Source: a virus. From it: DNA of 20,975 bases. A program made the position numbers and the translations under genes. The first letter of the stretch is position 1, and each line of letters begins with the position of its first letter. Of the stretch, positions 1-18,262 are shown in pieces. A model generated the notes under the pieces. That model did no database searches, was not told the DNA's origin, and worked only from the letters and a program-made list of their open reading frames with translations. Location: UHGV virus genome UHGV-0216266; one strand, given 5' to 3'.

Positions 1-22
1 CCTTTATAAAATTTATTCATTC

Positions 23-3043: not shown

Positions 3044-3389
3044 TCTCTGCTCCTGTTGATACGGAAAGGGAAACAGGCACACCGTTATTACGCCGCCCGC
3101 TCAGCACCACCACCATTGAACCGTCAAAATTGCTGTTGATGGTGATGGAATCCAGCGTCATCCGTGGCTCCCAGCGACTCAGCGCCACATACACTGCCGA
3201 CATGACCTGCAGGCGTAATGCCGGATTTTGTGGCTGGTCTATCAGTGCCGACAGCAGGGAACCATATTCACGGCGAGCAATGCGGCTACCCTGCGGCGTC
3301 AGCAGAATGTCCCGCACCGACTGGCGCAGATGGTCAATATCAGTAATGACTTTGCCGCTGGTATTGTTCATCCCGCTATAAAGCGTCAT
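3030..3389 (-). CDS. W: Baseplate wedge protein (P2 gpW / GPW-gp25 family)
   Basis: 119-aa ORF. ATG at 3387-3389 overlaps the V stop (ATGA). Size and position match P2 W. Confidence 0.75.
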   Translation of the reverse strand: MTLYSGMNNTSGKVITDIDHLRQSVRDILLTPQGSRIARREYGSLLSALIDQPQNPALRLQVMSAVYVALSRWEPRMTLDSITINSNFDGSMVVVLSGRRNNGVPVSLSVSTGAENGSD

Positions 3390-3964
3390 ACCGGGCCTCC
3401 GGTTGTATCTCCGCCTTTCAGGACGCCAGTATGCTGATGCGCATCAACCACGATCCCGTTAGAACTCATCGCTCCGCCGCCCTGAGTAACGCCACCATTG
3501 ATCACCACTTCGCTGTTAATGCGCGTGCGGTCAGCCTCCAGTACAAACTCACTGGTTTTCATGGTGATGTTGTCAGCGGCCTCAATGACCATTGATTTGA
3601 TGCCCCTGACATACCAGCGCCCGGTGGCGGGTTCATATTCAAACCAGCTACCGTCAGGATGTTCTGTCACGCAGGCGTCCGCCGACGTCGACGGTGGTGC
3701 GAACTGATTCGAATAGACAGCGGGCAGCGCAAAGGCAGTCTCCAGATTGCCGCCCAGACTCAGCAGCACCACCTGCTCACCTTCTGATGGTTTCCACCAT
3801 GTGCGGGCATTACCCGCGCGCAGCGTCAGCCAGTTAATCCAGTTAGTTTCAAGGTCGCCCGTTTTCACCCGGCAAAGCCAGTTTGTCCTGTCCACTTCGG
3901 TGACTACCCCAGTGCGGATCAGGTTGGTGATAAGGCGCATGATTTCGGTTAATTGTGCGTTCAT
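3386..3964 (-). CDS. V: Baseplate spike/hub protein (P2 gpV-like)
   Basis: 192-aa ORF, ATG at 3962-3964. First gene after a non-coding gap that follows S, as for the P2 V operon. Protein is Gly/Thr-rich at the C-terminus, typical of spike proteins. Confidence 0.75.
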   Translation of the reverse strand: MNAQLTEIMRLITNLIRTGVVTEVDRTNWLCRVKTGDLETNWINWLTLRAGNARTWWKPSEGEQVVLLSLGGNLETAFALPAVYSNQFAPPSTSADACVTEHPDGSWFEYEPATGRWYVRGIKSMVIEAADNITMKTSEFVLEADRTRINSEVVINGGVTQGGGAMSSNGIVVDAHQHTGVLKGGDTTGGPV

Positions 3965-4009
3965 AGGGAAAGGTTGCCATCAGGGGAAGAAAGGCGGCAG
4001 TGCTGCAAC

Positions 4010-4029
4010 TTGTATCAGTGCTGATACAA
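4010..4029 (-). promoter_or_regulatory. Perfect 9+2+9 palindrome TTGTATCAG-TG-CTGATACAA containing TGT-N12-ACA; candidate late-activator (Ogr/B-type) site for the V operon
   Basis: Read directly at 4010-4029. TGT is 4011-4013 and ACA is 4026-4028. It lies in the 68-nt gap between the S stop (4033) and the V start (3964). P2-family late promoters carry a TGT-N12-ACA dyad (established knowledge). The centre is ~55 nt from the V ATG, which is closer than I would expect if the dyad is centred at -55 from the transcription start. Confidence 0.4.
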
Positions 4030-4032
4030 AAA

Positions 4033-4479
4033 TCACCCCGCCAGCCATTGCAGAATCATGTCGCGGGTCATTGCCTCAACATCATCATTTACACCCAGAA
4101 GGCGACGCTCTGCGTAACGGACCTCCGGTCCTTTGCGGCTGACGCGATCACGTAAGCCGTAGTGATGAACACGGGCAATGCGCTGTACCTTGCCTTCAAA
4201 CTGCACGCTGGCAGAGTCGGCGCTGGCGGCAGTTTTCAGGTATTTTGTGGTGCGCAGCTTTGTAAACATCTGACGTTTGATGCGCCCCTTTTTGCTGCGT
4301 GCTGTTACCCTGCGCGGCTCATAACTGCTGCCATCAGGATTGCGCTGCATCCTGATGTTCTGCTGCTGTGTCCGGCGCAGTTCCTGCGCCAGCTGGCGCA
4401 TCATGCGGCTTCTTGCGGCTGGCTCCAGATTCGCCAATAATGCACTCAGCCAGTTGTCCACCTTCTGCAGTTCATCCAC
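4033..4479 (-). CDS. S: Tail completion protein (P2 gpS-like)
   Basis: 148-aa ORF. GTG start at 4477-4479 overlaps the R stop at 4472-4474. Synteny R-S-V. Confidence 0.7.
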   Translation of the reverse strand: MDELQKVDNWLSALLANLEPAARSRMMRQLAQELRRTQQQNIRMQRNPDGSSYEPRRVTARSKKGRIKRQMFTKLRTTKYLKTAASADSASVQFEGKVQRIARVHHYGLRDRVSRKGPEVRYAERRLLGVNDDVEAMTRDMILQWLAG

Positions 4480-4924
4480 GTTTCACCGTCCACATTTCTT
4501 CAGGTTCATCAGGTTCCGCTACCGCTTCAACGTTCGACACACTGCCGTCAGTGCTGACCAGCACACGCTCCGTCAGTTGCAGGTTAAGGCTGATATCACA
4601 GACATCGTTGCGCAGAATATCCACCTCAAAGGTGAATAGCTTTTCCCGTAACGCCGGGTTATTGATGGCATCGGGCTGGTTATCCCGCAGCCACAGCAAA
4701 ACCGGGGCCATCAGCAGATTCTGGTCGCCGCTGAAATCCTCTATCACCACGTTCAGGGTATAGCGGTACTCCCATGACATGGAGCTGGCCCCCGTGGCAA
4801 CCAGCGAACCGTTATCCACAAACAGATGCAGTTTGTCCGGGTTATTGCGGACATAAGGCACTGCTTTATTGAGGGCGTGGCGCAGGGATTGTGGTTTGTT
4901 CACTGTTTCGCTCCTGACACGCAA
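4472..4924 (-). CDS. R: Tail completion protein (P2 gpR-like)
   Basis: 150-aa ORF. The track start codon is TTG (4922-4924) and there is no nearby in-frame ATG, so the start is uncertain. Follows the lysis cassette as in P2. Confidence 0.65.
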   Translation of the reverse strand: MRVRSETVNKPQSLRHALNKAVPYVRNNPDKLHLFVDNGSLVATGASSMSWEYRYTLNVVIEDFSGDQNLLMAPVLLWLRDNQPDAINNPALREKLFTFEVDILRNDVCDISLNLQLTERVLVSTDGSVSNVEAVAEPDEPEEMWTVKRG

Positions 4925-5156
4925 TAATCATGTCCACTTTGTCTGCACAGACCGCCCAGGCGGCCTCCGTTTCATCCAGCAATGCGTTCAGACCACCGTT
5001 AGTGCGTGGCGCTGCCTGCTCCAGCCGACACGGCGTCACTCGCGGACAACCACTGACGGTAACCTGCACCTCCGGTGAGTGCCGGACGTTCCCGCAGCCG
5101 GATAATGTCAGCAGGCAAAGGAGTATCAGCCCAGCGGCGTAAATCCTCGTTCTCAC
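4866..5156 (-). CDS. lysC: Outer-membrane lipoprotein spanin (o-spanin, LysC/Rz1-like)
   Basis: 96-aa ORF starting (GTG, 5154-5156) inside lysB in another frame and running 59 nt into R. N-terminus MRTRIYAAGLILLCLLTLSGC has a signal peptide plus lipobox (LSGC). Pro-rich C-terminus. Confidence 0.6.
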   Translation of the reverse strand: MRTRIYAAGLILLCLLTLSGCGNVRHSPEVQVTVSGCPRVTPCRLEQAAPRTNGGLNALLDETEAAWAVCADKVDMIIACQERNSEQTTIPAPRPQ

Positions 5157-5427
5157 GTTTCAGTTCCTCGATCCGGCGTTGTCGTTGTCTCAGCTGTGCG
5201 CTGGTCTGTTCTGCTTCGGCATAGAGCCGCGCCTGCTCCCGGTTATTGGTTTCAGTCAGAATGGACAGGCTGATAAGCTGGCTGTTGCTCTTTGCCAGTG
5301 CATGGCTTTTGCTCTGCAGCTCGTCTGCCTGCGTGCTGATGGTCTGGCTGGCATCAGCCAGCCGCCACGTCTGCCAGCCCAGCGCCGCCAGTAATAACGC
5401 CAGCACAACCAGCAGCAACCGGTTCAT
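4999..5427 (-). CDS. lysB: Inner-membrane spanin (i-spanin, LysB/Rz-like)
   Basis: 142-aa ORF, ATG at 5425-5427 overlapping the lysA stop (ATGA). N-terminal TM segment LLLVVLALLLAALGW followed by a charged, coiled-coil-like region (LRQRQRRIEELKRENEDLRR). Confidence 0.7.
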   Translation of the reverse strand: MNRLLLVVLALLLAALGWQTWRLADASQTISTQADELQSKSHALAKSNSQLISLSILTETNNREQARLYAEAEQTSAQLRQRQRRIEELKRENEDLRRWADTPLPADIIRLRERPALTGGAGYRQWLSASDAVSAGAGSATH

Positions 5428-5801
5428 GCTGCTACCTGTTGCGCCATCTGATTACGGGTGATCCAGAAGGCAATAACGGTCAGTAGATAAAAGACCAGGG
5501 TAATAGCCCACCCCGTCCAGGCGAGACTTACAACAATCAGCAATCGCATCACCCAACTGGTAAATACGTTTTCTTTTCGGGTAATTGTCTTCAGCAAAGA
5601 TGCCCTTAACTCCTGCCAGAGCGGACCATTCTTAATTAACGCAGCCAGTGCTACCGGAATTACCGCCCATGTCAGCAAACAGGCTACCCAAACGCCGGAC
5701 TCTGCCAGTACCGGAAAAATCCCCTGCGGATACACCATTGCTGCGATTAACAGCGCCATCCATAACATCAGAAACAGTCCGCTGATTAATTTCTTTTTCA
5801 T
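5424..5801 (-). CDS. lysA: LysA-like membrane protein (lysis accessory, possible antiholin)
   Basis: I prefer the ATG at 5799-5801 (MKKKLISGLFLMLWMALLIAAM..., 125 aa). It has a GGGAG Shine-Dalgarno and abuts the K stop at 5803-5805, whereas the track start at 5873 would overlap K by 70 nt. Multiple hydrophobic helices. Confidence 0.6.
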   Translation of the reverse strand: MKKKLISGLFLMLWMALLIAAMVYPQGIFPVLAESGVWVACLLTWAVIPVALAALIKNGPLWQELRASLLKTITRKENVFTSWVMRLLIVVSLAWTGWAITLVFYLLTVIAFWITRNQMAQQVAA

Positions 5802-5802
5802 T

Positions 5803-6315
5803 TCAGTTTGCTCCCTGTAAGCACCAGGCCATCTCCCGCGCACGGCGGTTATCCAGCCCCTGATTAAAAACACCTTTCACATAAACCCAGCGCGGCAACT
5901 GTCGGCACGCATCTGCCCAGCGCCGCTGATTGAGTAATTTCACCAGCGTGGAACTGCAGGCATTGCCCGTTCCCACGTTGAAGGCAAACGACACCGCAGC
6001 GTCATACACCTTCTGCGGCGGCTGTTGCTTCACACACCTTTCCAGCGCCCGCTCCACACGCAGCACGTTGGAGATCAGCCCTTCTGCTGCCTGTCGCTCC
6101 GTAATGGTTTTGCCGGGAATGACGCCTGACGTATTACCAATGCCGTCGGTCCAGACACCCGCGCTGCACTGATACGGCTGCAGACGACAACCTTCGTAAT
6201 CGGCAATCAGTTTCAGCCCCTCCACGGAGGTGTGAAGCTGCTGAAAACCCGGCAGCGTGGCAGCAATAGCCAGCACGGCCCCGACAAGGCAGCGTTTAAC
6301 GATTGATGGATTCAT
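5803..6315 (-). CDS. K: SAR endolysin (T4/P1 Lyz-type lysozyme, GH24-like)
   Basis: 170-aa ORF. N-terminal weakly hydrophobic Gly/Ala-rich segment containing Cys9 (KRCLVGAVLAIAATLPGF). Catalytic region YEGCRLQPYQCSAGVWTDGIGNT gives E41, C43, C50, T56, matching the E-x-C-x6-C-x5-T spacing I recall for P1 Lyz. Confidence 0.75.
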   Translation of the reverse strand: MNPSIVKRCLVGAVLAIAATLPGFQQLHTSVEGLKLIADYEGCRLQPYQCSAGVWTDGIGNTSGVIPGKTITERQAAEGLISNVLRVERALERCVKQQPPQKVYDAAVSFAFNVGTGNACSSTLVKLLNQRRWADACRQLPRWVYVKGVFNQGLDNRRAREMAWCLQGAN

Positions 6316-6511
6316 AGTCCTCCCGCGAGATCTGCCCGTCGCGCAGAAGCTGGTAGGCTTTGTGTTTGTAGTACCAGTTGATAGCCAGCATCAGCACACC
6401 AATCATCAGGCCGCCCAGCGTTGAGGCATCCTTGATGGACAAATCGCCCAGCCAGGCCAGCACGACGGCGATGCAATACGTGATAAAGGCGCTGATTCGC
6501 TCAAGCGTCAT
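6296..6511 (-). CDS. Y: Holin, probable pinholin (P2 gpY position)
   Basis: 71-aa ORF with two hydrophobic helices (ISAFITYCIAVVLAWLG, LGGLMIGVLMLAINWYY) and a charged C-terminus, immediately upstream of the endolysin. ATG at 6509-6511. Confidence 0.65.
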   Translation of the reverse strand: MTLERISAFITYCIAVVLAWLGDLSIKDASTLGGLMIGVLMLAINWYYKHKAYQLLRDGQISREDYESINR

Positions 6512-6514
6512 AAT

Positions 6515-6718
6515 TCAGTCCCATAGCTGGACGGTCTGCACGGTGGTGGTGGTCGGAATGTCCGGCAGCTCCACCTGCAGCCCGTGAGGTAAAAAGGGGC
6601 CGTATTCGGCAAGCCCCGGATTTGCCTTCAGTACCTGCTCCGTGACACCCTGCGTGCGCCCGTAATGACGCCAGCAAAGCGCGTCCACCGTGTCATACTG
6701 ATGCGCACGCACTTTCAT
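6515..6718 (-). CDS. X: Tail protein X (P2 gpX-like, LysM-like)
   Basis: 67-aa ORF, the same length as P2 X. ATG at 6716-6718 overlaps the L stop (TGATG). Between L and Y as in P2. Confidence 0.7.
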   Translation of the reverse strand: MKVRAHQYDTVDALCWRHYGRTQGVTEQVLKANPGLAEYGPFLPHGLQVELPDIPTTTTVQTVQLWD

Positions 6719-7182
6719 CAGATAAGCTCCACTGTGCAGTGCGGCGCATCCTGCACCCGGCTGATGGCCCAGCGGGCGTCACACCACAAATCACCGCTGG
6801 CTTCTGCCAGTTCTTCGCCCCGCTTCACACCGGATGCCGTGGCGTCATAGTCCTGGTAACGTTCGTTGAGCATGGCGCGTGCCCAGCAGTAAACCGCGTT
6901 GAAATAGTGCTGAATGCGCTCGCTTTTGCCGTCCAGTTGTTCCGCTGGGACTTCTGCCAGCGAGGCATACCCCAGCATCTGCTGGCGTCTGCGAAACTCA
7001 TACAGCTCTGCGTTGACCTCCGAAATTGCCGACAGCGCAACCTGCTTTAAACGCGGCTGCGTCACCGTGCCATCAGTGCGCATCACGCTGCGAAACTCCG
7101 ACAGGTCCACATCAGGCCAGAACGGCGTATTTCTGATGATTTCCGCCTGTTCCGGTGCCTGTTCTGGCGCAACAAACTTCAT
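6718..7182 (-). CDS. L: Head completion/stabilisation protein (P2 gpL-like)
   Basis: ATG at 7180-7182 (MKFVAPEQ...) is preceded by an AGGAGA Shine-Dalgarno. The track's GTG start at 7245 lacks one. Position between M and X. Confidence 0.7.
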   Translation of the reverse strand: MKFVAPEQAPEQAEIIRNTPFWPDVDLSEFRSVMRTDGTVTQPRLKQVALSAISEVNAELYEFRRRQQMLGYASLAEVPAEQLDGKSERIQHYFNAVYCWARAMLNERYQDYDATASGVKRGEELAEASGDLWCDARWAISRVQDAPHCTVELI

Positions 7183-7277
7183 GCTGCTTTCTCCTGAAAT
7201 AAAGGGCGGTGGACGGGGTTTTGATGTGGCAGTGCCTTTCGCCACCCCGTGCCGCCCGTGCGCGGGGGCACGTTCTG

Positions 7278-7928
7278 TCAGCGGCTGTCATTGCGCAGTC
7301 TGCGCTCCAGCTGCTGTTTGTCTTTTTTCACGCCACAGCGGGGATCGAGCTGTAACGCATGGTTGAGATGATTAAGGGCGGAAGCCGGATTGCTTTCACT
7401 CAGAACAGCGCCAATCGCTTTATGCAGACGCGCCCGTGACTGGTCCGGCATATCCAGACCGTCTGTCAGCTCCAGCGTCTGCAGCAACAGATCGGCATCA
7501 AAGCCGGTGGCGGCAAGCATTGCGCTCTGCGCTGCATCTGCCATTTCCTCTGCCAGTACGGTCTGCACATTGCGGTTACCCAGCGGCATCACCCAGCCAT
7601 GACGCAGGGCATGACGCCCGATCTCCAGCGCCCCGGCATAATCTCCGGCATCAATGCGCCACAGCATCACGTACATCAGCACGTCATCCTGTTGAGCGCC
7701 TCCGGCAGCCAGGACGCCCTCCGCCCAGGCGGCATATTTCGGCAGCAGCTCCACCTTTATTTCCGCTTTTTTGACCGTGGACTGAACGCCCTTGAGACGG
7801 CGGCGGTCTTCCGCCAGTTGCAGCAGCATCAGGTCATAGCCAGATGCGTGGCGAACGCTGCCGCCCTCGCGGGCGGCCTGTTCAGCCTGAACGCGCAGGC
7901 GATGCTGCCGTGCGGGACTCAGGCTCAT
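7278..7928 (-). CDS. M: Terminase small/endonuclease subunit (P2 gpM-like)
   Basis: 216-aa ORF, ATG at 7926-7928, directly after the N stop (7932-7934). Synteny O-N-M-L. Confidence 0.7.
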   Translation of the reverse strand: MSLSPARQHRLRVQAEQAAREGGSVRHASGYDLMLLQLAEDRRRLKGVQSTVKKAEIKVELLPKYAAWAEGVLAAGGAQQDDVLMYVMLWRIDAGDYAGALEIGRHALRHGWVMPLGNRNVQTVLAEEMADAAQSAMLAATGFDADLLLQTLELTDGLDMPDQSRARLHKAIGAVLSESNPASALNHLNHALQLDPRCGVKKDKQQLERRLRNDSR

Positions 7929-7931
7929 AGG

Positions 7932-8990
7932 TTACGCTCCGGCTTCTGCTGCAGCGGCGCTGAAATCGCCAATCTGGATGTTTTCCACCAGTGCGGCGCA
8001 GCGGTAGTCCTCAACCACATAGGCTTCGTTAACGGATTCAAAGTTTTCAATCCGGTCACGTTTCGGGTTGTCGATAACTGAACGGCGGCGGGTGTCTTCC
8101 TGCCAGTAGATGGACAGGTTATCCAGACGGGTGATTAGCAACGCATTCGGCGGGAAGAACGGCGCACGCACGGCCTGCAGGCCACCCATGCGTTTCTGAC
8201 TGATGATCATATCGGCAGCCAGTTTTTCACTGTTTTCCTGCTCTTTGTTGACCAGCGGGAAATACTTGTCAGACAGCAGTTCACGCCCGCAAATAACCAC
8301 CAGATCGTCATCGTCCTGGTAAACCACGTCGATAAGCTCATTGACGGCATCCATCACTACGGCGTCCAGGTTGGCATATTCGCCACCTTTCCCGACTTTC
8401 ACCGCACCCGGTGTAGTTTCACCGCCCGTGGTGGTGCTGCCCATGACGTGATCCGGTGCATCCTCACGGATTTTCTGCAGCCAGCCTTTATTCACATCCT
8501 GCAGCAGCGGGTTTTCGCTACGGTTGGAGGTTTTCGCACGCTTCACGCCGTTAAAGCCGATCATGATGCGGTCCAGTGCCTGACGTTTCACGATGGCGTC
8601 ACGGATACGCACCTGGAAATCCTGAAACTTCGCCCACAGGTCCAGCTTCGCGTAGGTCAGCACCGTGTCAAAGTTGGTCTGCTCGCATTTATATTCCACA
8701 TCGACCATCAGCGTCGGATCGACAGGTTCACGCTCTTTCGCGGTGGTATCAGTGGTTCCGGCAATGGTGCTGCCAACACCCAGCCCCAGCAACTGACCGG
8801 ACTGCTCAGTCACTGGCGTGACGTTAATCAGTGTCAGGAAAGCGGCGGACTGCTGGATCTGGTCTTCCAGCGTCTGCTGCACGGACGGTTCGACGGTGAA
8901 CTTGCTGGACAGTTCTTCAACTGCAACACCGTTCAGACGCGCCAGCTGCTGCAGGTAAGCGTTAAAAGCAAAGCGGGTATTCTTCTTCAT
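7932..8990 (-). CDS. N: Major capsid protein (P2 gpN-like)
   Basis: 352-aa ORF (P2 N is ~357 aa by memory), ATG at 8988-8990. Follows scaffold gene O. Confidence 0.8.
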   Translation of the reverse strand: MKKNTRFAFNAYLQQLARLNGVAVEELSSKFTVEPSVQQTLEDQIQQSAAFLTLINVTPVTEQSGQLLGLGVGSTIAGTTDTTAKEREPVDPTLMVDVEYKCEQTNFDTVLTYAKLDLWAKFQDFQVRIRDAIVKRQALDRIMIGFNGVKRAKTSNRSENPLLQDVNKGWLQKIREDAPDHVMGSTTTGGETTPGAVKVGKGGEYANLDAVVMDAVNELIDVVYQDDDDLVVICGRELLSDKYFPLVNKEQENSEKLAADMIISQKRMGGLQAVRAPFFPPNALLITRLDNLSIYWQEDTRRRSVIDNPKRDRIENFESVNEAYVVEDYRCAALVENIQIGDFSAAAAEAGA

Positions 8991-9006
8991 CGGGTTTTGT
9001 GCTCCA

Positions 9007-9840
9007 TCAGCAATTGGTCAGAGTGTCAGCGGGGGCGTTACCGCCTGTTGCACGCTGGCGGTAGTCCTGGCGGCTGTCTTCATGACTCAGCTTATCCACC
9101 AGTTCGTTAAAGGCGGCTTGTTGTGCCTGCAGGGCAGTCTCCATCTCAGACAGGCGTTCTTCCTGCTCAGACAGGAATTTTTCGGTGCGCGTGCTCAGGT
9201 TTTGCTGCTCAGTGGCGACCAGTTCCACGGCCTTATGCACATCAGAGAACCGTGCATCATCGGACTGCTCTTTTTTGGTGAACAGCGCCGTGACGCGGGC
9301 AAACAGGGACGGCTTGTCCTCCTGGACTTCTTCCAGTTCGATCACCGTTTCCTCTGCAGCGGTAAAAAGATTGGCGGGATTCTGCTTGCGGTTTGCCAGC
9401 GGGTTATGGGCTGCACTGGCGCTGAATGTCAGCATTTCCGTACCCAGACTGGCGGGATCATCAGTGGCAGCCAGGCCGACCAGGTAGGCTTTGCCCGTAT
9501 CAGCAAACTTCGGGCTGACTTCCATAGAGGTGAATAATTTCTGGCCTTTTTTCACCAGTTCCACCAAGGACTCCGTTGGCTCAACGTCGGCATACAGTGC
9601 CATCTTGCCTGCCAGCGGACCTTCCGTGATTTCTTCAGCAAACAGCGCCGTCACCTTGCCGTAGCGGTTAAAGGTGCTGTCCGGAAGATAAGACTTGATG
9701 TGCTCAAGGTTAATCAGCGCGGTGTACACCGCCGGATTGTAGCTGGCTGCCATCTGTTCCAGCCATTCACGCTGGATTTCGCGTCCGTCGGTAGTGGCAC
9801 CTTCCACCCCGATGCGAAAACGCTTTGCTTTCACTGTCAT
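9007..9840 (-). CDS. O: Capsid scaffolding protein (P2 gpO-like)
   Basis: 277-aa ORF, ATG at 9838-9840 with a GGAG Shine-Dalgarno. Acidic, coiled-coil-rich C-terminal half. Divergent from P across a 142-bp intergenic region. Confidence 0.8.
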   Translation of the reverse strand: MTVKAKRFRIGVEGATTDGREIQREWLEQMAASYNPAVYTALINLEHIKSYLPDSTFNRYGKVTALFAEEITEGPLAGKMALYADVEPTESLVELVKKGQKLFTSMEVSPKFADTGKAYLVGLAATDDPASLGTEMLTFSASAAHNPLANRKQNPANLFTAAEETVIELEEVQEDKPSLFARVTALFTKKEQSDDARFSDVHKAVELVATEQQNLSTRTEKFLSEQEERLSEMETALQAQQAAFNELVDKLSHEDSRQDYRQRATGGNAPADTLTNC

Positions 9841-9918
9841 GAGCCGTGCTCCGTTAGAAAAAACTTACTGGAGCCTTATGGTTACGGTGATGGGGGCAGT
9901 GAAACAATGCGCGGTATT

Positions 9919-9936
9919 TGTACCGACAACCACACA
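9919..9936. promoter_or_regulatory. TGT-N12-ACA dyad in the O/P divergent late-promoter region
   Basis: TGT at 9919-9921 and ACA at 9934-9936, the only such dyad inside the 142-bp O-P intergenic region. Its centre is ~87 nt from the O ATG and ~55 nt from the P ATG. Arm symmetry is weak beyond TGT/ACA, so a chance match is possible. Confidence 0.3.
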
Positions 9937-9982
9937 AACCGCAGGCGGGGAAAGCCTTCATTCAAGGCTGTAGGTTTGTGCC

Positions 9983-11749
9983 ATGAACACCACACTGACA
10001 CCCGCAGATCTCGATCCCCGTCGGCAGGCCATGCTGCTGTACTTTCAGGGATACCGCGTAGCCCGCATTGCTGAAATGCTGGGCGAGAAAGTTGCAACCG
10101 TTCACAGCTGGAAAAAACGCGACAAGTGGGGTGACTATGGGCCGCTGGATCAGATGCAGCTCACCACCGCCGCACGCTACTGCCAGCTCATTATGAAGGA
10201 GCACAAAGAAGGGAAAGATTTCAAAGAGATTGACCTGCTGGCGCGCCAGTCTGAGCGCCACGCGCGGATCGGCAAGTTTAACAATGGCGGCAACGAATCC
10301 GACTTAAACCCTAACGTCGCCAACCGCAACAAAGGCCCACGCCGTCAGCCGGAAAAGAATGTTTTCACCGATGAGCAGATTGAGAAGCTGGAAGAAATCT
10401 TCCATTCCTCCATGTTCAACTACCAGCGCCACTGGTGGGAAGCCGGAAAAACCAACCGCATCCGCAACCTGCTGAAGTCACGCCAGATCGGCGCGACCTT
10501 TTACTTTGCCCGTGAAGCCCTGATTGACGCCCTGCTGACCGGACGTAACCAGATTTTCCTTTCCGCCAGCAAGGCACAGGCCCACGTCTTTAAGCAGTAC
10601 ATCATCGACTTCGCCAAAGAAGTGGAGGTGGAGTTGAAAGGCGATCCGATGGTGCTTCCTAACGGGGCCACGCTTTACTTCCTCGGCACCAATGCCCGCA
10701 CGGCCCAGAGTTATCACGGCAACCTGTATCTGGATGAATATTTCTGGATACCGAAATTCCAGGAGCTGCGCAAAGTGGCTTCCGGTATGGCTATTCACAA
10801 GAAATGGCGACAAACCTATTTTTCCACGCCATCCAGCCTGACACACAGTGCTTATCCGTTCTGGTCCGGTGCGCTATTCAACCGTGGGCGCAACAAAGCA
10901 GATAAGGTGGACATCGACCTGTCCCACAGCAATCTGGCCCCCGGCCTGCTGTGCGCAGATGGGCAATACCGCCAGATTGTCACCGTGGAAGATGCAGTGC
11001 GCGGCGGATGTAACCTGTTCGACCTCGATCAGTTACGCATGGAGTACAGCCCGGACGAATACCAGAACCTGCTGATGTGCGAGTTTGTGGACGATCTCGC
11101 GTCTGTGTTCCCACTCAGCGAGCTGCAGGCGTGCATGGTGGACAACTGGGAAGTCTGGACCGACTTTCATGCACTGGCACTGCGCCCATTTGGCTGGCGC
11201 GAAGTGTGGATCGGTTATGACCCGGCGAAAGGTACGCAGAACGGCGACAGTGCCGGATGCGTGGTGGTGGCACCGCCAGCCGTGCCGGGCGGCAAGTTCC
11301 GCATTCTTGAGCGTCACCAGTGGCGCGGGATGGACTTTCGCGCCCAGGCTGACGCCATCAAAAAACTGACCGAACAGTACAACGTGACCTATATCGGCAT
11401 CGACTCAACCGGCGTTGGTCACGGGGTTTATGAGAACGTGAAAGCGTTCTTTCCTGCCGTCCGGGAGTTTGTCTACAACCCCAACGTTAAAAACGCCCTG
11501 GTACTCAAGGCCTACGACATTATCAGCCACCGCCGTCTGGAGTTTGACGCCGGGCACACCGACATTGCGCAGTCATTCATGGCAATCCGTCGCGCCACCA
11601 CCGCCAGTGGCAACCGCCCGACCTATGAAGCCAGCCGCAGCGAAGAAGCCAGCCATGCCGATCTGGCCTGGGCAACGATGCACGCACTGTTTAACGAACC
11701 GCTGCAGGGCGAATCCGCCAATACCAGCAATATTGTGGAGATTTTTTGA
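9983..11749 (+). CDS. P: Terminase large (ATPase) subunit (P2 gpP-like)
   Basis: 588-aa ORF (P2 P is ~590 aa by memory), ATG at 9983-9985. Its TGA stop overlaps the Q ATG (TGATG). Confidence 0.85.
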   Translation: MNTTLTPADLDPRRQAMLLYFQGYRVARIAEMLGEKVATVHSWKKRDKWGDYGPLDQMQLTTAARYCQLIMKEHKEGKDFKEIDLLARQSERHARIGKFNNGGNESDLNPNVANRNKGPRRQPEKNVFTDEQIEKLEEIFHSSMFNYQRHWWEAGKTNRIRNLLKSRQIGATFYFAREALIDALLTGRNQIFLSASKAQAHVFKQYIIDFAKEVEVELKGDPMVLPNGATLYFLGTNARTAQSYHGNLYLDEYFWIPKFQELRKVASGMAIHKKWRQTYFSTPSSLTHSAYPFWSGALFNRGRNKADKVDIDLSHSNLAPGLLCADGQYRQIVTVEDAVRGGCNLFDLDQLRMEYSPDEYQNLLMCEFVDDLASVFPLSELQACMVDNWEVWTDFHALALRPFGWREVWIGYDPAKGTQNGDSAGCVVVAPPAVPGGKFRILERHQWRGMDFRAQADAIKKLTEQYNVTYIGIDSTGVGHGVYENVKAFFPAVREFVYNPNVKNALVLKAYDIISHRRLEFDAGHTDIAQSFMAIRRATTASGNRPTYEASRSEEASHADLAWATMHALFNEPLQGESANTSNIVEIF

Positions 11750-12783
11750 TGGGAAAGAGTAAGAAGAACCGCGCTGCGGCGACGAAACAGATCCAGCTTA
11801 AAAGTCAAACTACAGCCGAAGCATTCAGCTTCGGCGATCCCGTTCCTGTTCTGGACCGCCGAGAATTACTGGACTATGTGGAATGCGTACAGATGGACCG
11901 TTGGTATGAGCCGCCCGTCAGCTTTGACGGACTGGCGCGCACCTTCCGCGCTGCAGTGCATCACAGTTCCCCGATTGCAGTAAAGTGCAACATTCTGACC
12001 AGTACCTACATCCCTCACCCGCTGCTCAGCCAGCAGGCTTTTTCGCGTTTTGTGCAGGACTATCTGGTATTTGGCAATGCCTATCTGGAGAAACGCACGA
12101 ACCGCTTCGGTGAAGTGATCGCCCTTGAACCTGCGCTGGCAAAATACACCCGACGCGGATTAGACCTGGATACCTACTGGTTTGTGCAATACGGTATGAC
12201 AACCCAGCCGTATCAGTTCACGAAAGGCAGCATTTTTCATCTGATGGAACCGGATATTAATCAGGAGATCTACGGCCTGCCCGGTTATCTTTCTGCCATT
12301 CCGTCAGCCCTGCTCAACGAGTCCGCCACGCTGTTCCGCCGTAAGTATTACATCAACGGCAGCCATGCAGGCTTCATCATGTATATGACTGACGCCGCGC
12401 AGAACCAGGAGGATGTGAACAACCTCCGCAACGCGATGAAAAGCGCCAAAGGTCCGGGCAACTTCCGCAACCTGTTTATGTATTCGCCCAACGGTAAAAA
12501 AGACGGCATCCAGATCATCCCACTGTCTGAGGTTGCAGCAAAGGATGAATTTCTGAACATTAAGAACGTGAGCCGCGATGACATGATGGCAGCACACCGC
12601 GTACCGCCGCAGATGATGGGCATTATTCCTAACAATACCGGCGGCTTTGGTGATGTGGAAAAAGCCAGCCGCGTCTTTGTCCGTAATGAGTTAATACCGC
12701 TACAAAAAAGACTCGAAGAACTAAATGAGTGGTTGGGGGAAAAGGTTATTTCTTTTGAACCATATAAATTTGACATTGAATAA
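11749..12783 (+). CDS. Q: Portal protein (P2 gpQ-like)
   Basis: ATG at 11749-11751 (MGKSKKNRAA..., 344 aa, matching the P2 Q length by memory). The track ORF begins one codon earlier at TTG. Co-oriented with and overlapping P. Confidence 0.85.
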   Translation: MGKSKKNRAAATKQIQLKSQTTAEAFSFGDPVPVLDRRELLDYVECVQMDRWYEPPVSFDGLARTFRAAVHHSSPIAVKCNILTSTYIPHPLLSQQAFSRFVQDYLVFGNAYLEKRTNRFGEVIALEPALAKYTRRGLDLDTYWFVQYGMTTQPYQFTKGSIFHLMEPDINQEIYGLPGYLSAIPSALLNESATLFRRKYYINGSHAGFIMYMTDAAQNQEDVNNLRNAMKSAKGPGNFRNLFMYSPNGKKDGIQIIPLSEVAAKDEFLNIKNVSRDDMMAAHRVPPQMMGIIPNNTGGFGDVEKASRVFVRNELIPLQKRLEELNEWLGEKVISFEPYKFDIE

Positions 12784-12827
12784 AAGAAATAACCACCACC
12801 AGTCACACATTGGTAATGTGTGACTGG

Positions 12828-13373
12828 TTAGCGTCCCAATCTAAAGTTTAATTTTTCTCTTGGAGTCATTGCACGCCCAATAGCCCCATCTAATAAATGA
12901 CTATTTTTCTCTAAATGTTCACGCGCCCATGGCTGTAAGTTGAAAGCAAAACCGTAGATCATATCCCCAACACTGGTGGCTCTATAAGTAATCCCCTTAG
13001 CCACAAGTCCCCCCATGACCCCATCCTCAGGCCCACACATAAGTGAATTAACACCTTCGGTAATATAAGACTTTAAATATCCTTTTTCTTCTGCTGTTAG
13101 CTTCTCAAGGTAGGAAGTGCGTACCTTCTTAGCCTGCCTTTCACCAAGTAAGTCATAGAAAGAGAGATAGACTCTTGCAACTAAATAAGATACAGACAGT
13201 AAAAATGCAGGTCCAATAAAAATCCTATACTCATTACGAAAGCCATCAACAGCCACTTTTACTGCCAAAGAGTCTGGCAGAAAAAGTATAAGACCTAAAA
13301 CACATGTAATAGCCACAAGAAATGCTGCAGGTACTTTTCGAAAAAACTCTGCAACTCCAGTTATAACGTCCAT
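12828..13373 (-). CDS. Hypothetical two-TM membrane protein (accessory gene between portal gene and cos)
   Basis: 181-aa ORF in visibly AT-rich DNA (~37-40% GC on hand-counted lines, against ~55% in flanking phage genes). ATG at 13371-13373 with a GGAGG Shine-Dalgarno 10 nt upstream. Two N-terminal hydrophobic helices (AAFLVAITCVLGLILFL, IFIGPAFLLSVSYLVARVYL) and a ~110-aa soluble C-terminal domain. No family recognised. Confidence 0.6.
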   Translation of the reverse strand: MDVITGVAEFFRKVPAAFLVAITCVLGLILFLPDSLAVKVAVDGFRNEYRIFIGPAFLLSVSYLVARVYLSFYDLLGERQAKKVRTSYLEKLTAEEKGYLKSYITEGVNSLMCGPEDGVMGGLVAKGITYRATSVGDMIYGFAFNLQPWAREHLEKNSHLLDGAIGRAMTPREKLNFRLGR

Positions 13374-13462
13374 TTTGTCTATACCTCCAACAGCGCTAAA
13401 AAGTATTTTGAAATTCTACCTCATAACTATGCCAAAAGCACTGCGTCCCCCATCAGCGCGCG

Positions 13463-13481
13463 CTCGTATCCCCGCCACGCC
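13463..13481 (-). other. Candidate cos (cohesive-end) site
   Basis: The minus strand reads GGCGTGGCGGGGATACGAG. The first 13 nt match the 19-nt cohesive end I recall for phage 186 (GGCGTGGCGGGGAAAGCAT; P2 has GGCGAGGCGGGGAAAGCAC). Orientation points toward Q, as expected. Confidence 0.5.
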
Positions 13482-13526
13482 TGCCCGCTTTATGTAGTGG
13501 TTTTCATGCAGGTGCATAATCTACGC

Positions 13527-13550
13527 AAAAGCCCGCCAGTTCTGGCGGGC
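13527..13550 (-). terminator. GC-rich hairpin (GCCCGCCAG / CTGGCGGGC) with a U4 tail on the minus strand
   Basis: Perfect 9-bp inverted repeat at 13531-13550. The minus-strand transcript would end ...hairpin-UUUUGCG. No U-tract on the plus strand. Confidence 0.4.
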
Positions 13551-13823
13551 CTTAGCAAAAACGATCCTCAAACGATCATGCAATCTCATGCAGCATAGAC
13601 ATGCACAGACGAGTAAAGCGAATCGGACTTTACGCAAGGTGAACTCCTCAGCGGGCATAATCAGTATGTCGGAAGATCTCTAAAAATGAATAATTCGGTT
13701 AACAGGTATGCTTACAAAAGCATATATTTGATTAAAAATCATGTAAGGGGGAGGATCTCAAACTGAATCGCCACGGGTTTTACAAACTTCGATAGTCTCT
13801 CTAACGTTTCGGCTGAGGTCAAA

Positions 13824-14249
13824 ATGAAAAGCTTTTACGTATTAATTTTAATTCTGGTTGCAAGCTTTGTTAGCGTCCCAGTTCAGGCGGTAACAGCTAA
13901 AAACTATGAGAAAGGAACTAAAGCTCAACAGAAATCAATATCTTACCTTTCATGTGCATTCTATGGCAGTAGCACACAATTAGATCCTAGCTACACGGAG
14001 CAAGTACCTACAGCCGATATCAAGATATTACAGAAAGCAGCTTACCACGCTTACAACGATGCGCTCTCATACTTTGGCTATGAGGAACCAGATCACGAAC
14101 AACGCATAATTGATTATGCTGAATTTGTGGCGTCGCAAGAAGCTGTGTTATGGGATAAGCCGGGAATGAATGGAAAGCAGGTAACACTAATTGCTCGTTC
14201 TCTCTACAATGAGAGTAACTGTAACTTGTTACTGGACTCAATTAAGTAG
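13824..14249 (+). CDS. Hypothetical secreted/periplasmic protein (accessory gene at the old/tin-equivalent position)
   Basis: 141-aa ORF in AT-rich DNA. ATG at 13824 with a GAGG Shine-Dalgarno 5 nt upstream. N-terminal signal peptide MKSFYVLILILVASFVSVPVQA with an AXA-type cleavage motif (VQA/VT). Mature ~119 aa with two Cys. Convergent with the DinI-like operon. No family recognised. Confidence 0.6.
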   Translation: MKSFYVLILILVASFVSVPVQAVTAKNYEKGTKAQQKSISYLSCAFYGSSTQLDPSYTEQVPTADIKILQKAAYHAYNDALSYFGYEEPDHEQRIIDYAEFVASQEAVLWDKPGMNGKQVTLIARSLYNESNCNLLLDSIK

Positions 14250-14408: not shown

Positions 14409-14642
14409 TTAATGCAGCCAGCTGTCGTCTTCCCACACCTTCTGCATAATTTTCATCACTTGTTTTCTTTCTTCGTCCAGTTGCAGTCCGGTCAGTTCCA
14501 CACCGTTAGAGCTACCTTTGCGGATACGAATTACCGTTTTGGGATACAGGGGGCGCAGATTGCGGTAAAGCTCGGATTCAAGGGCGTCCAGTGTAGACTG
14601 GCTAATCTTCTGCTCTTTATCGATCATTATTTCAATGCGCAT
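14409..14642 (-). CDS. DinI-family protein (resembles the DinI-like C-terminal part of the 186 Tum antirepressor)
   Basis: ATG at 14640-14642 (MRIEIMIDKEQKISQSTLDALESELYRNLRPLYPKTVIRIRKGSSNGVELTGLQLDEERKQVMKIMQKVWEDDSWLH, 77 aa) with a GAGGTG Shine-Dalgarno. Similar to E. coli DinI (MRIEVTIAK...ETWESADDWFV) as recalled from memory. Confidence 0.7.
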   Translation of the reverse strand: MRIEIMIDKEQKISQSTLDALESELYRNLRPLYPKTVIRIRKGSSNGVELTGLQLDEERKQVMKIMQKVWEDDSWLH

Positions 14643-14993: not shown

Positions 14994-17408
14994 TTAATAC
15001 AGGTTCCGCCACTTATCATCTTCCTTCAGACGCTGGTTCCGATAGAAGATACGCAGGCCTGCTCCTGACGGAATACTGCCACCGCGAAGGAGTAAATCTA
15101 CCTCTTTCTCGCTGCCATCAAATCCTCTGGACTTCAGTTCATAGACGAGCTGCTGTCGTTGATGGTCTGTAATTCGCTGTTTGTAGTTTCTACGCCGTTT
15201 CGGTTTCACCAGGCGTAACCTTGCAGCCAGTTCCCGGCGCTCTTTTTTGTTCATACTGTGCAGAAAATCGTGCAACTCCTTGTCATCCATGCGGGTAATA
15301 TCCGTTCTGGTGTCCCCATCAGCTGATTTATCTTTCTCCTGTTGGTTCAAATTTTCAGCAAGGGGACAGTTATTGCCACGAGTCCAAGGGGCGCAAGCGC
15401 CCTGGTCGGCTGCCGCCTCCTGAACGTCAACGGCTTTACGAACCATTTTCCACTTCACTGCATGAGTGCAGATCTTGCCCTCTGCAATGGGTGACCAGAT
15501 GCCATAAATACGAATGCCGTGATCGCCATAGGCGGTCGGCTCTTCGTTGATTTCATAAGCGGTTCTGATGAGGTGATATTTACGGGGAACCAGTACGCCG
15601 CCCTGCTTCATGATGTAGGTGGCAAAACAACCAGCATCAGCAGCAGCCAGAATGGCATCAAGACGCGGGTTATCCAGTACCGGCGCACCTGCTTTTTTGT
15701 CACCCTGTTGCCTTGCCGCCTGACCAGCCAGCAAGCGAAGTTCACGGTAAGCCTGACGCCCCGGAATACCAAAGAAGCGGAATTGCTGAACACGATGCAG
15801 AGACGCCCAGGCATTCACGTATTCAGCGTTATCACGCAGAGATTTACCCGTTTCCTTGCTGATCTCGCCAGCCAGACCACGACCGTCAATGTTCTTACTG
15901 ATATATTTCGCGATGTAGCTTGTCGGCGTTCCTTTGCGCGGGTTAATCAACTCAGACTTAAAGCGCGGCCCAGTGTTATTGCCCAGCTCCTCGCGGTCTT
16001 CACGGATGGCAAACTTACGCAGTAATGCAGTGATGGCACGGCGGTCTTTTTTGCGCATGAAACACAACAGGTGCCAGTGAACTGTGCCATCATGATGCGG
16101 CTCAGCCACCCGCACGCCATACCAGCGCAACCCGGCTTTGTGCATCGCCTTACGAAATGCAGCAAACATGCCGACCAGATAATCGCTGCTTTGTCTTACC
16201 GTCGCGTTTGTCCAGGTCGGGTTTGGTCTGCCGTTATTTAGCGTGGAATGGAAACGCGACGGACAGGTGATAGTGTAGAAAACGGCGCAGTCACCGCGCA
16301 TTTCCGCGATAAGCTCCAGACCTTTAACACAGGCCATCATCTCATTGCGGCGATGCGCAGGGTTGCTGCTGCTGGCGTTTACCACATCCTCCATGTCCAG
16401 CGTGTCGCCGTCTTCGTTCACCAGTTCATGAGAACGGAAAAACTCCAGCGACTTACGGCGCTGCTCACGTCTATGCATCACGGCTTCATAGCTGACATAA
16501 GGAGATGCTTTTTTGCTGACCAGGCAAACAGCGCGCAACTGCTCTTCCCGCCATTCGCAACGCATCTTCCATAATTTCCGATACCACCAGTCGGCGCACA
16601 ACATACGCGCCAGCGAACCCGGAATGAGTTCATAGGGCACGGGTTTACGGCGGTTTCTTTTCCGACGGAGTTGCTCAAACGCAGGTGGGATGACATCCAG
16701 ACGCAGGGTTTCCGCTGCCACCTTTTCCCATGTCTTGCGGATTTCTTCTGGCTTAACGTCATCGGTGGCATACAAATCACCACAAGCTGCATCAAGGCAC
16801 ATACTCATATGCGCAGCTACCAGGGTGGACAGGCGTTTCACCTGATCCTGACTCATTTCAGGCAGGATCAGCAGGCCGTCCAGCCCTTCATGGCTTGCCA
16901 TAAAGCGAAAAGATGCAGATAGCTGACTGTCGCGTACATGCTCCAGTCGTTCCAGACATGGCTTAATCGTCTCACGTAAATAGCGGGAATAAGCCTTTGG
17001 CCTGCCCAGGCTGCTGAAGTATTCAATACGTTGCATCAGCGGCTTGCTGATATGGGAAGGCTGGGCGTTGACGTCCGCCAGAATGACCATGTCTGAATTA
17101 AAACGCTGCTGCTCATGCGCCAGCTTTGCCCGGCTAATGAGCTTATCCTGCTCCATTTCGCGCTGGACAGGATCACGTGATTCATTAAAGAAATAACGCT
17201 CCCAGACCTGATCACTCAGTGCCTCGCGGCGCAACTGTTCCTGCTCGTTATCGGCAGCGTACAGAGTGATCAGGTTTGAAAGCGTAGAAACCGGCGCAAC
17301 TTCCGCCGGGTCCAGATAAGGGTTAATGGCCTTTTTCGTGCTGTTCCATGAGAATGCTGCGGCAGCCTCGTTAAAGCCGCAGCAGTTGTTCATATCGGCA
17401 TGACTCAT
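14994..17408 (-). CDS. A: Replication initiation endonuclease (P2 gpA-like rolling-circle initiator)
   Basis: 804-aa ORF. ATG at 17406-17408 overlaps the Dam stop (ATGA). Contains the His-hydrophobic-His motif VHWHLL typical of HUH-type initiators. Large size and position next to the early region match P2 A / 186 A. Confidence 0.8.
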
Positions 17409-18262
17409 GCACGTACTCCGTACACGGCAGAACTATCCACGCCACGCGAATAATCAAATCCCATCCAGCAGCGCGGCCCGGAAACAGCAATGATTTCTGT
17501 TGCTGATTTACCCTCGCCAGCTGCCACACCGATGCTGCGTTTTACCTTGATATAGTGGTGAGTAAAATTGCGATACAGCGAACGGATCAGGGATGTGTCA
17601 CTGTTAGAAACAATGACCGGATGTCCTTCTGATGACCGATGTTCAAGAACGGATGCCAGGTGATACTGGTCATCTTCAGTGAAACCATCAGTGTGATAAC
17701 CGGAAAACGTACCGTCATATGGCGGATCGCAATACACCACATCTCCCGCCTTCAACATCGTCAGCGTTTCATCAAAGCTGGCGCAGATAAACGTTGCTCG
17801 CTGGGCTTTTTCTGCAAATGTGCGAAGTTCTTTTTCAGGGAAATACGGATTTTTATAATTACCGTAGGGAATGTTGAAATGCCCGCTCTTGTTATAGCGA
17901 CATAAACCACGGTAACCGTGACGATTGAGATACAGGAAATATACCGCTTTCATGAAATCAGTAATTTCAGTTGAGCAGTTAAACTCCTGCCTTATGTTGT
18001 AATAAGCCACCTCCCTGTTTGCGATCTCAAATAAAACTCTGGCGCGAGATATAAACGATTCACAATCAGCGGCAACCTTTTTATAGAGGTTGATTAAATC
18101 AGGATTAATATCCGCAACCAGATAGCTGGGATAATCCGTTTCCATCATCACAGCACAGGAACCCGCGAAAGGTTCAACCAGTCGCGGGCCAGCAGGAAGG
18201 TATTTTTTCAGTTCTGGCATAATGGCGGTTTTATTTCCCGCCCATTTCAGGATGGTGCTCAT
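17405..18262 (-). CDS. DNA N6-adenine methyltransferase (Dam family), orphan
   Basis: ATG at 18260-18262 ([11 protein letters not shown]..., 285 aa) with a GGAGG Shine-Dalgarno. Motifs KWAGNK, EPFAGS (SAM-binding FxGxG) and DPPY (catalytic motif IV of N6-adenine methyltransferases). No adjacent nuclease gene. Confidence 0.85.

Follow-up and report, generated by a model that had tools for sequence, protein, structure and literature searches.

A probable cos packaging site with an array of YGCATG repeats at fixed distances from the predicted nick in a P2-like prophage of Escherichia coli

Results

The stretch of DNA analysed here (the window) comprises 20,975 nucleotides of the virus genome UHGV-0216266 and represents a P2-like prophage in an orientation reversed with respect to the P2 map. 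The prophage is of the Fels-2 type, belongs to E. coli and is apparently intact. From about position 10853 rightwards, the window matches the chromosome of E. coli MB06234 with 100% identity over its right half; the prophage copy in that strain is degraded, and the late genes in the window look intact. Pfam matches, together with the RefSeq annotation of an identical stretch, give the gene order gpM, N, O, gpP, gpQ, cos, A, as in P2. The genes on either side of the block studied here are as follows.

7278-7928, minus strand: small terminase, gpM homologue (Pfam PF05944 Phage_term_smal, E 2e-40)
7932-8990, minus strand: major capsid (gene table)
9007-9840, minus strand: scaffold (gene table)
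9983-11749, plus strand: large terminase, gpP homologue (Pfam Terminase_5 over residues 11-68, Terminase_6N and Terminase_6C)
11746-12783, plus strand: portal, gpQ homologue (Pfam Phage_portal; RefSeq annotation of the identical stretch)
12828-13373, minus strand: SieB-family superinfection-exclusion gene, cargo (Pfam SieB, E 4.5e-25)
about 13455-13606, minus strand: putative cos block, the feature studied (cross-family conservation)
13824-14249, plus strand: cargo ORF (gene table)
14409-14642, minus strand: DinI-like gene (gene table)
14994-17408, minus strand: replication gene A (gene table)
17405-18262: phage Dam methylase gene (RefSeq annotation of the identical stretch)

Both terminase subunits are annotated from Pfam, and searching their sequences against the PDB found no relative for either one. 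Residues 13-46 of gpP give a sub-threshold match to Sigma70_r4_2 that overlaps the Terminase_5 region, and we predict that the N-terminus of gpP is an HTH-like domain of the gpP type and that gpP is the nuclease that cuts cos. A search of the entire window against Rfam at gathering thresholds returned no RNA family.

The block lies between Q and the A side, as cos does in the P2 and 186 records that we compared, and gpQ is the left-end marker of the P2 map that adjoins cos. A hotspot for defence and cargo genes adjoining cos, between gpA and gpQ, has been described (PMC9122126). The SieB gene is strain-specific cargo that sits between cos and Q, outside cos, and marks the edge of that hotspot. 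When the region was compared with phage genomes by BLAST, the match was confined to approximately 13452-13606, with unrelated cargo on both flanks, and within it the window was 92-97% identical to Fels-2, RE-2010, SEN8 and peduoviruses of Klebsiella and E. coli. Fels-2 and phage 500465-1 carry other genes on both sides of the block, and in other E. coli strains homology with the window ends at approximately 13455-13456. Judged from these alignments, the functional block appears to extend to approximately 13455, slightly further left than the position 13463 at which the initial annotation had begun it. In the numbering used below, position 0 is the initial G of the minus-strand GGCG (window 13481), such that the window coordinate equals 13481 - p; borders at -125 and +26 thus separate cos from both cargo segments of the gpA-gpQ hotspot. 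From left to right, the block contains the following elements, in which a caret marks a predicted nick.

13455-13462, minus strand: right nick flank CGCGCGC (+19 to +25), left edge of the block (conservation profile)
13463-13481 (0 to +18), minus strand: predicted 19-nt 5' cohesive end GGCGTGGCGGGGATACGAG (sequence; identity with SEN8; analogy with P2 and 186)
13482-13491 (-10 to -1), minus strand: left nick flank AAAGCGGGCA, containing GCGGGCA^ (also in P2, 186 and P4)
13500-13517 (-36 to -19), minus strand: proximal element ATGCA-CC-TGCATG-AAAAC, with TGCAT at -29 corresponding to the hexamer at 13505 (conservation)
13527-13550, minus strand: hairpin GCCCGCCAG-AA-CTGGCGGGC (-69 to -50), then TTTT (-49 to -46) (fold, conservation)
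13562-13577 (-96 to -81), minus strand: two GATC (Dam) sites 11 bp apart, GATCGTTTGAGGATCG, at 13563-13566 and 13574-13577 on the plus strand (conservation)
13577-13606, minus strand: distal array of three TGCATG direct repeats at -124, -111 and -101 (hexamers at 13600, 13587 and 13577), right edge of the block (conservation)

The initial annotation had recognized a 13-nt match to the P2/186 cohesive end at 13469-13481. The reverse complement of these positions, GGCGTGGCGGGGA, agrees with the 186 cohesive end at 13/13 positions and with that of P2 at 12/13, P2 having an A at position 5, and the claim holds in full for 186 and with one mismatch for P2. That the remaining six nucleotides diverge from both phages was correct, as the complete 19-mer, read from 13481 to 13463, matches 186 (GGCGTGGCGGGGAAAGCAT) at 15/19 positions and P2 (GGCGAGGCGGGGAAAGCAC) at 14/19. 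The overhang nevertheless fits the form found in the P2 family, GGCG(A/T)GGCGGGG followed by 6-7 nt, and the same 19-mer is labelled 'putative cos site' at positions 1-19 of the Salmonella phage SEN8 record. The records of SEN8 and of Erwinia phage EtG terminate exactly at the predicted nick. By analogy with these phages, we predict that the top strand is nicked between 13482 and 13481 and the bottom strand between 13463 and 13462.

To place this cohesive end among its relatives, we draw on a scan of IMG/VR with a pattern that covered only -9 to +13 around the nick and that matched at least 120 stretches. Among the matches listed, the 19-mer of the window is the commonest cos class (43 of 123 loci), and the other classes are the P2/P4 type (at least 32), an ATAGCAT type (at least 21) and the 186 type (at least 13). 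Most of the listed loci encode homologues of Q, P and A, and at least nine encode psu, sid or delta and are P4-like satellites. Conservation of the left nick flank among the IMG/VR matches arises by construction, since this flank lies inside the search pattern, while its presence in P2, 186 and P4 is independent of the search. The GCGCGC at +20 to +25 is strongly conserved in the information-content profile although it lies outside the pattern. Together the two flanks give the nick region a two-fold symmetry, with GCGGGCA^ on the top strand (-7 to -1), GCGCGCG^ on the bottom strand (the reverse complement of +19 to +25) and the consensus GCGSGCR^ on both, an arrangement that would suit recognition by a dimeric nuclease.

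Over -36 to +26, gapless identity with the window is 45/62 for P2, 50/62 for 186 and 48/62 for P4, compared with 9-13/34 just outside. P2 and P4 share a contiguous block of identity from -29 to +25, which takes in the TGCAT at -29. PMC5694545, PMC3931495 and PMC9594776 cite a 55-bp P2/P4 cos core as necessary for packaging. The first two of these papers refer for the conserved core to Ziermann & Calendar 1990, and the P2-P4 identity block corresponds to the core that these two papers give (PMC5694545, PMC3931495). The location between Q and A, the identity with the putative cos of SEN8 and the similarity to P2 and 186 all bear out the earlier reading of a cos-like core, and the block is almost certainly a cos site.

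Outside this core, the most prominent features of the block are four copies of CATGCA, all on the plus strand, at 13505, 13577, 13587 and 13600. The copy at 13505 sits within ATGCA-GG-TGCAT (13506-13517, plus strand). These positions and the palindrome were as the initial annotation had given them, and its statement that the cluster exceeds chance is also upheld: four same-strand copies within 101 bp occurred in 2 of 2000 first-order Markov simulations of the window. The window as a whole holds 12 copies on both strands, compared with 25.6 expected, and one third of them fall within these 101 bp. The four hexamers read (T/C)GCATG on the minus strand and, counted from the nick predicted for the top strand, lie at -124, -111, -101 and -29, on the side of that nick that is the right end of the P2 map. 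The alignments described below indicate that the conserved unit is this minus-strand (T/C)GCAT(G) and not strictly CATGCA.

The comparative evidence for the array is far stronger than the hexamer statistic within the window. In 111 non-redundant cos regions drawn from the IMG/VR matches listed, YGCAT occupies -124 in 66% (a further 28% carry it at -121/-120), -111 in 83% and -101 in 88%; at -29, TGCAT is present in 109/111 and YGCAT in 111/111. The background frequency of TGCAT is 0.0013 per position. The ATGCA half at -36 is found in 66% of these regions and is absent in P2. Across the listed matches, information content stays high between about -125 and +25 and drops to near zero from about +27 on one side and beyond about -125 on the other. 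YGCAT stands at -123/-124, -111, -101 and -29 in P2 (at -123), 186, P4, SEN8 and the window, so that alignment with P2, 186 and related phages shows the repeats to be retained, the opposite of the lack of conservation that the initial annotation had named as evidence against them.

These positions stand out from the sequence around them. When P2, 186, P4 and the window are compared without gaps, the distal array shows 55-76% identity and the core 73-87%, whereas the spacer reaches only 17-50% and the flanks 21-41%; in the comparisons with P2, identity in the spacer is near random. Between P2 and P4, islands of identity outside the core occur only at the repeats. All four repeats are present in 8/8 of the P4-like satellite loci that we analysed among the listed matches. 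In an independent sample of species-representative genomes of the Enterobacterales, each repeat was found in 24-30 of 30 usable loci; genomes with the cos class of the window came from Pantoea, Klebsiella, Raoultella, Serratia, Enterobacter, Citrobacter, Kluyvera and others. Pooling the Fels-2 class gave 73 distinct blocks, in which YGCATG is present at -124, -111, -101 and -29 in 64, 66, 66 and 73, respectively, and YGCAT at the three distal positions in 64-67. Phages of Ralstonia, Erwinia and Yersinia also keep distal and proximal copies. The distal array is not universal, since Aeromonas phage LPM4 has the proximal TGCAT only, with three copies of AAGGATC in place of the distal triplet. As far as sequence comparison can indicate, these data support selection on the four YGCAT positions independent of the surrounding sequence.

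Between the proximal and distal repeats lies the hairpin. On the plus strand, 13531-13550 reads GCCCGCCAG-tt-CTGGCGGGC, which confirms the perfect 9-bp stem noted in the initial annotation. The T-run follows the stem on the minus strand only (AAAA at 13527-13530 on the plus strand), and there the GC-rich stem-loop stands directly 5' of UUUU, the arrangement of an intrinsic terminator. The minus-strand RNA folds with a minimum free energy of -23.4 kcal/mol (z = -4.9; 0/200 shuffles as stable). A simple scan for consensus terminators did not include the hairpin among its listed sites. Its designation as a terminator in the initial annotation gains from the terminator-like fold and the T-run, and would apply to transcription of the minus strand alone.

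Within the pooled Fels-2 class, CCA-N4-TGG is present in 61 of the 73 blocks, with six loop variants, and the T-run in 68; counted among the listed IMG/VR matches, 87% of the class have at least four T after the stem. Covariation is almost absent and the stem is near-invariant in the class; the non-Watson-Crick cells comprise 8 that would be wobble pairs in minus-strand RNA, 5 that would be wobble pairs in RNA of the other strand and 16 others. In Fels-2 some 100 bp separate the last minus-strand early gene from the hairpin downstream of it; in the window the hairpin follows the A-dinI genes in the minus direction. A strong stem with a T-run is typical of the Fels-2 cos class, and on sequence grounds the hairpin is likely to act as a transcription terminator for the minus strand only. 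The 186 terminator t95b was considered as a positional homologue and was rejected, as it lies at -189 to -162, outside the cos block.

The pair of GATC sites directly adjoins the distal YGCATG array. Of the 73 pooled Fels-2-class blocks, 64 have GATC at both -96 and -85, and the 7-nt spacer between the two takes 16 different forms. Among the listed IMG/VR matches, the P2, 186 and P4 classes almost entirely lack the pair, against a background of 0.08 per 30 bp. Presence of the pair co-occurs strongly with presence of a Dam gene (16/4/4/29), an association that is fully confounded by lineage.

Discussion

The block of approximately 150 bp lies between unrelated cargo genes in a P2-like prophage. 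We propose that 13455-13606, approximately, is the complete cos packaging site of this Fels-2-type prophage, with the roles for the array and the hairpin that are set out below, and we assign this reading a probability of roughly 0.8.

By analogy with P2 and 186, terminase, made up of the small subunit gpM and the large subunit gpP, would recognize the block on circular phage DNA during lytic growth and would introduce two nicks 19 nt apart, after GCGGGCA and after GCGCGCG on opposite strands, to leave the 5' overhangs GGCGTGGCGGGGATACGAG. Conservation suggests that the distal triplet of repeats and the TGCATG at -29 together form a sequence-specific recognition array for terminase. The spacing of the repeats, 10-13 bp, is close to one helical turn and would align them along approximately the same face of the helix. 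Candidate readers are an oligomeric gpM and/or the HTH-like N-terminal domain of gpP, and the array could have a function like that of the repeated R sites in lambda cosB. If its role is like that of cosB, its position predicts that the right end of the P2 map is packaged first; a cosQ-like role is the alternative. The hairpin and T-run would most likely terminate minus-strand transcripts from the gene A-dinI early operon or from cargo, and in doing so would keep RNA polymerase off the nick region, the neighbouring cargo and the antisense strand of Q and P.

That the YGCATG array is what terminase reads is, to our judgement, probable. In support of this, the array is the sole sequence outside the core of approximately 55 bp that P4-type satellites have in common with their helpers, which is what one expects of a signal that a satellite must mimic. 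We put forward as a hypothesis, built on sequence comparison, that YGCATG at four fixed positions is a so-far-undescribed recognition code of P2-type terminase that P4-like satellites have copied. Full-text searches of the literature, which did not extend to Ziermann & Calendar 1990, found neither the fixed YGCATG array nor the GATC pair described, and no binding-site map for P2-type terminase.

Could the repeats serve the neighbouring genes instead, as promoter or operator elements of cargo? P2 offers a precedent, since its old-tin mRNA starts at 33424/33426, leftward and approximately -150 from the nick, such that the upstream region of the promoter overlaps the distal array. The identity and orientation of the neighbouring genes vary, however, while the distance of the array is fixed to the nick and not to any gene; P4 satellites have unrelated neighbours (psu on that side) and still the same array; and in the window the sole promoter-like site for the adjacent plus-strand ORF, at 13699-13728, is outside the block. 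We consider this explanation very unlikely. Alternatively, a host nucleoid protein, such as IHF at I1 of lambda cosB, may bind to the repeats or to the spacer and bend the DNA, with terminase reading the core of about 55 bp only; the gap of approximately 70 bp between distal and proximal repeats and the inverted repeat in the spacer do resemble a bent nucleoprotein architecture. The initial annotation had likewise allowed for a host factor, a suggestion that finds no support in its IHF version, as the IHF consensus WATCAANNNNTTR is not enriched in the spacers: across the 111 regions from the listed IMG/VR matches, spacers match it no better than controls do, and the best match has at least three mismatches in 88/111 spacers, compared with two or fewer in half of the controls. 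In the spacer of the window the best match to WATCAANNNNTTR has three mismatches, which falls short of a lambda-type IHF site. To our knowledge, YGCATG is the consensus of no E. coli nucleoid protein, and conservation of the array from the Enterobacterales to Ralstonia phages is better explained by a phage-encoded reader than by a host one. We regard a host nucleoid protein as a decidedly unlikely reader. We disfavour still more strongly, as scarcely credible, the idea that the motifs persist merely through descent of a recently spread block of approximately 150 bp, with no selection on the motifs themselves. The 92-97% identity of the whole block within the Fels-2 class does make counts within that class non-independent; between classes, however, the motif positions persist where the spacer has fallen to 17-50% gapless identity, and the islands of identity between P2 and P4 lie exactly at the repeats.

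A further alternative concerns the hairpin and is compatible with the main reading: the inverted repeat at -69 to -50 may be primarily a part of cos that acts at the DNA level, read by terminase or structural, and not a terminator. Both 186 (CGCCAGAGCTGGCG) and P4 (ACCGCGCC-ATTCCC-GGCGCGGT) have shorter inverted repeats centred exactly at -59.5 that lack a T-run, and among the listed IMG/VR matches the best inverted repeat is centred at -59.5 in 50/114 regions and stems of at least 6 bp are found in 38% of spacers, compared with 8% of controls. P2, on the other hand, has a working cos and no such repeat. Termination is favoured in the Fels-2 class by the T-run of 68/73 pooled blocks and by a long GC-rich stem like those of intrinsic terminators, and in Fels-2 itself by the position of the hairpin about 100 bp past the final early gene on the minus strand, which is where one would look for the terminator of the operon. 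We regard a primarily DNA-level role as rather unlikely, and retain minus-strand termination as the preferred function of the hairpin.

For the GATC pair, we considered that in the Fels-2 class Dam methylation at -96 and -85 might gate recognition or cleavage of cos, and that the phage would carry its own Dam for that reason. If true, this would amount to control of the P1 pac kind grafted onto a cos system, although we rate the proposal as unlikely. Sternberg and Coulby, whose paper is among the references of PMC10359639, are said to have reported in 1990 that cleavage of P1 pac is regulated by Dam methylation. As in P1, GATC lies within the packaging recognition region and the phage has its own Dam methylase (17405-18262); unlike P1 pac, the window has only two GATC sites, and the mechanism is that of cos and not headful packaging.

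As for what is new, the finding is the correct recognition of a kind of element that is already known and leaves the picture of cos unchanged, because P2 cos is a textbook subject, the 55-bp core is cited, the 19-mer is annotated in GenBank and the hotspot is published. P2-family cos sites have been in the textbooks since work of the 1970s to 1990. For annotation, the analysis places the packaging site of this prophage and the ends predicted for its genome. For mechanism, its value lies in a hypothesis, cheap to test, of how P2-type terminase recognizes its DNA: through four copies of YGCATG whose distances from the nick are fixed and which helpers and P4-like satellites have in common. In practice, the result also bears on how efficient P2/P4 cosmids for delivering DNA are designed.

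The closest known systems are the cos sites of Fels-2, SEN8 and RE-2010 (Felsduovirus) and of the Klebsiella and E. coli peduoviruses, with which the window shares an identical 19-mer as well as the hairpin, the GATC pair and the repeats. The window differs from Felsduovirus cos in the cargo genes on both sides, and from most members of the Fels-2 class in that their second and third distal repeats are CGCATG, whereas all four in the window are TGCATG. The ends of this class are 'putative' in SEN8, the sole annotated record found, and our search found no experimental mapping of them. The cos sites of P2, 186 and P4 share with the window the location between Q and the A side, the terminase protein families, the flanks AAGCGGGCR and (T/C)GCGCGC and the YGCAT positions, and that of 186 also shares the first 13 nt of the overhang. 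They differ from it at overhang positions 14-19, which are TACGAG in the window and not AAGCAT or AAGCAC, and in the spacer, which in the window has a strong terminator-like hairpin and two GATC sites. Lambda cos is organized as cosQ-cosN-cosB, with R3, I1, R2 and R1, and combines a nick site with repeats, staggered nicks and 5' overhangs (PMC4669245). The window resembles it in having a nick site with partial two-fold symmetry, predicted staggered nicks with 5' overhangs, and short repeats within approximately 130 bp on one side that are candidate binding sites for the small terminase. The two have no sequence similarity, and the window differs from lambda in its 19-nt overhang, compared with 12 nt, in having no IHF-like site and in carrying its repeats on the opposite side from the terminase genes. 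P2-type terminase, in contrast to that of lambda, acts on monomeric circles.

Borders of the cos block and the adjoining cargo

The edges of the cos block, the minus-strand packaging region at window ~13455/13456 and ~13606, coincide with recombination breakpoints. Rightwards of ~13455, other E. coli strains are 99.9-100% identical to the window; leftwards their DNA differs, and the window carries a SieB cassette (12828-13373). Counting from the predicted top-strand nick (between 13482 and 13481, the latter being position 0), divergence among the IMG/VR relatives is complete beyond -125 in the matches listed. This coincidence of borders and breakpoints agrees with the published cargo hotspot adjoining cos (PMC9122126). 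Features on either side of the block are as follows.

12798-12828, terminator-like on the minus strand: inverted repeat with a 14-bp stem (terminator scan)
13699-13728: promoter-like site, TTAACA-18-TATATT (promoter scan)
13824-14249, plus strand: cargo ORF of 141 aa

The inverted repeat lies between the convergent genes for the portal (ending at 12783) and SieB (ending at 12828) and is likely a terminator, placed as are P2 tQ and 186 tW. The cargo ORF points away from cos and towards the dinI-A operon, with which it converges. It has no Pfam match; its N-terminus, MKSFYVLILILVASFVSVPVQA (translation of 13824-13889), looks like a signal peptide.

We also compared the window with a related prophage in E. 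coli MB06234 (NZ_CM129882, 3124784-3145758), which has host genes ybjL-rimK at its left and is identical to the window from ~10853 rightwards only, window 1-10853 not being matched in this way. That copy is degraded, with large terminase, tape-measure and tail genes annotated as partial pseudogenes, and the late genes of the window look intact and are in P2 order; by sequence, therefore, the same early region and cos are present in intact and decayed prophages alike.

Candidate recognition elements in cos and terminase

The cos spacer of the window contains paired Dam sites, and the prophage has a methylase gene of its own.

13563-13566 and 13574-13577 (within 13562-13577): GATC (Dam) pair, 11 bp apart
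17405-18262, minus strand: DNA adenine methylase (Dam) gene (annotation)
9983-10190: Pfam Terminase_5 domain, N-terminal in the large terminase gpP (residues ~11-68)

The GATC pair sits immediately beside the distal repeats, three TGCATG copies at -124, -111 and -101. Both sites are kept in 64 of the 73 distinct cos blocks pooled as the Fels-2 class, which share the 19-mer of the window, and the 7-nt stretch between them takes 16 different forms in this class; in the P2, 186 and P4 cos classes the pair is almost absent. Co-occurrence of a Dam gene with the pair (16/4/4/29) reflects an association at lineage level only. In Aeromonas phage LPM4, a distant P2-like phage, TGCAT persists at the proximal position together with the CCAG..CTGG inverted repeat, and about -125 to -80 from its own cos three AAGGATC repeats stand in place of the distal YGCAT triplet, possibly an alternative recognition array with Dam sites.

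Since sigma-70 region 4, a helix-turn-helix (HTH), matches the Terminase_5 region as well, though below threshold, gpP itself may contribute to sequence-specific DNA recognition. A PDB sequence search found no solved structures with detectable sequence similarity to gpP or to the small terminase gpM.

The predicted nick sites (window 13455-13491) are two-fold symmetric: one strand reads GCGGGCA^ and the opposite strand GCGCGCG^, placing the consensus GCGSGCR^ directly outside both ends of the 19-nt overhang. P2 has the same nick-site symmetry, as GCGGGCG^ and GCGCGCA^.
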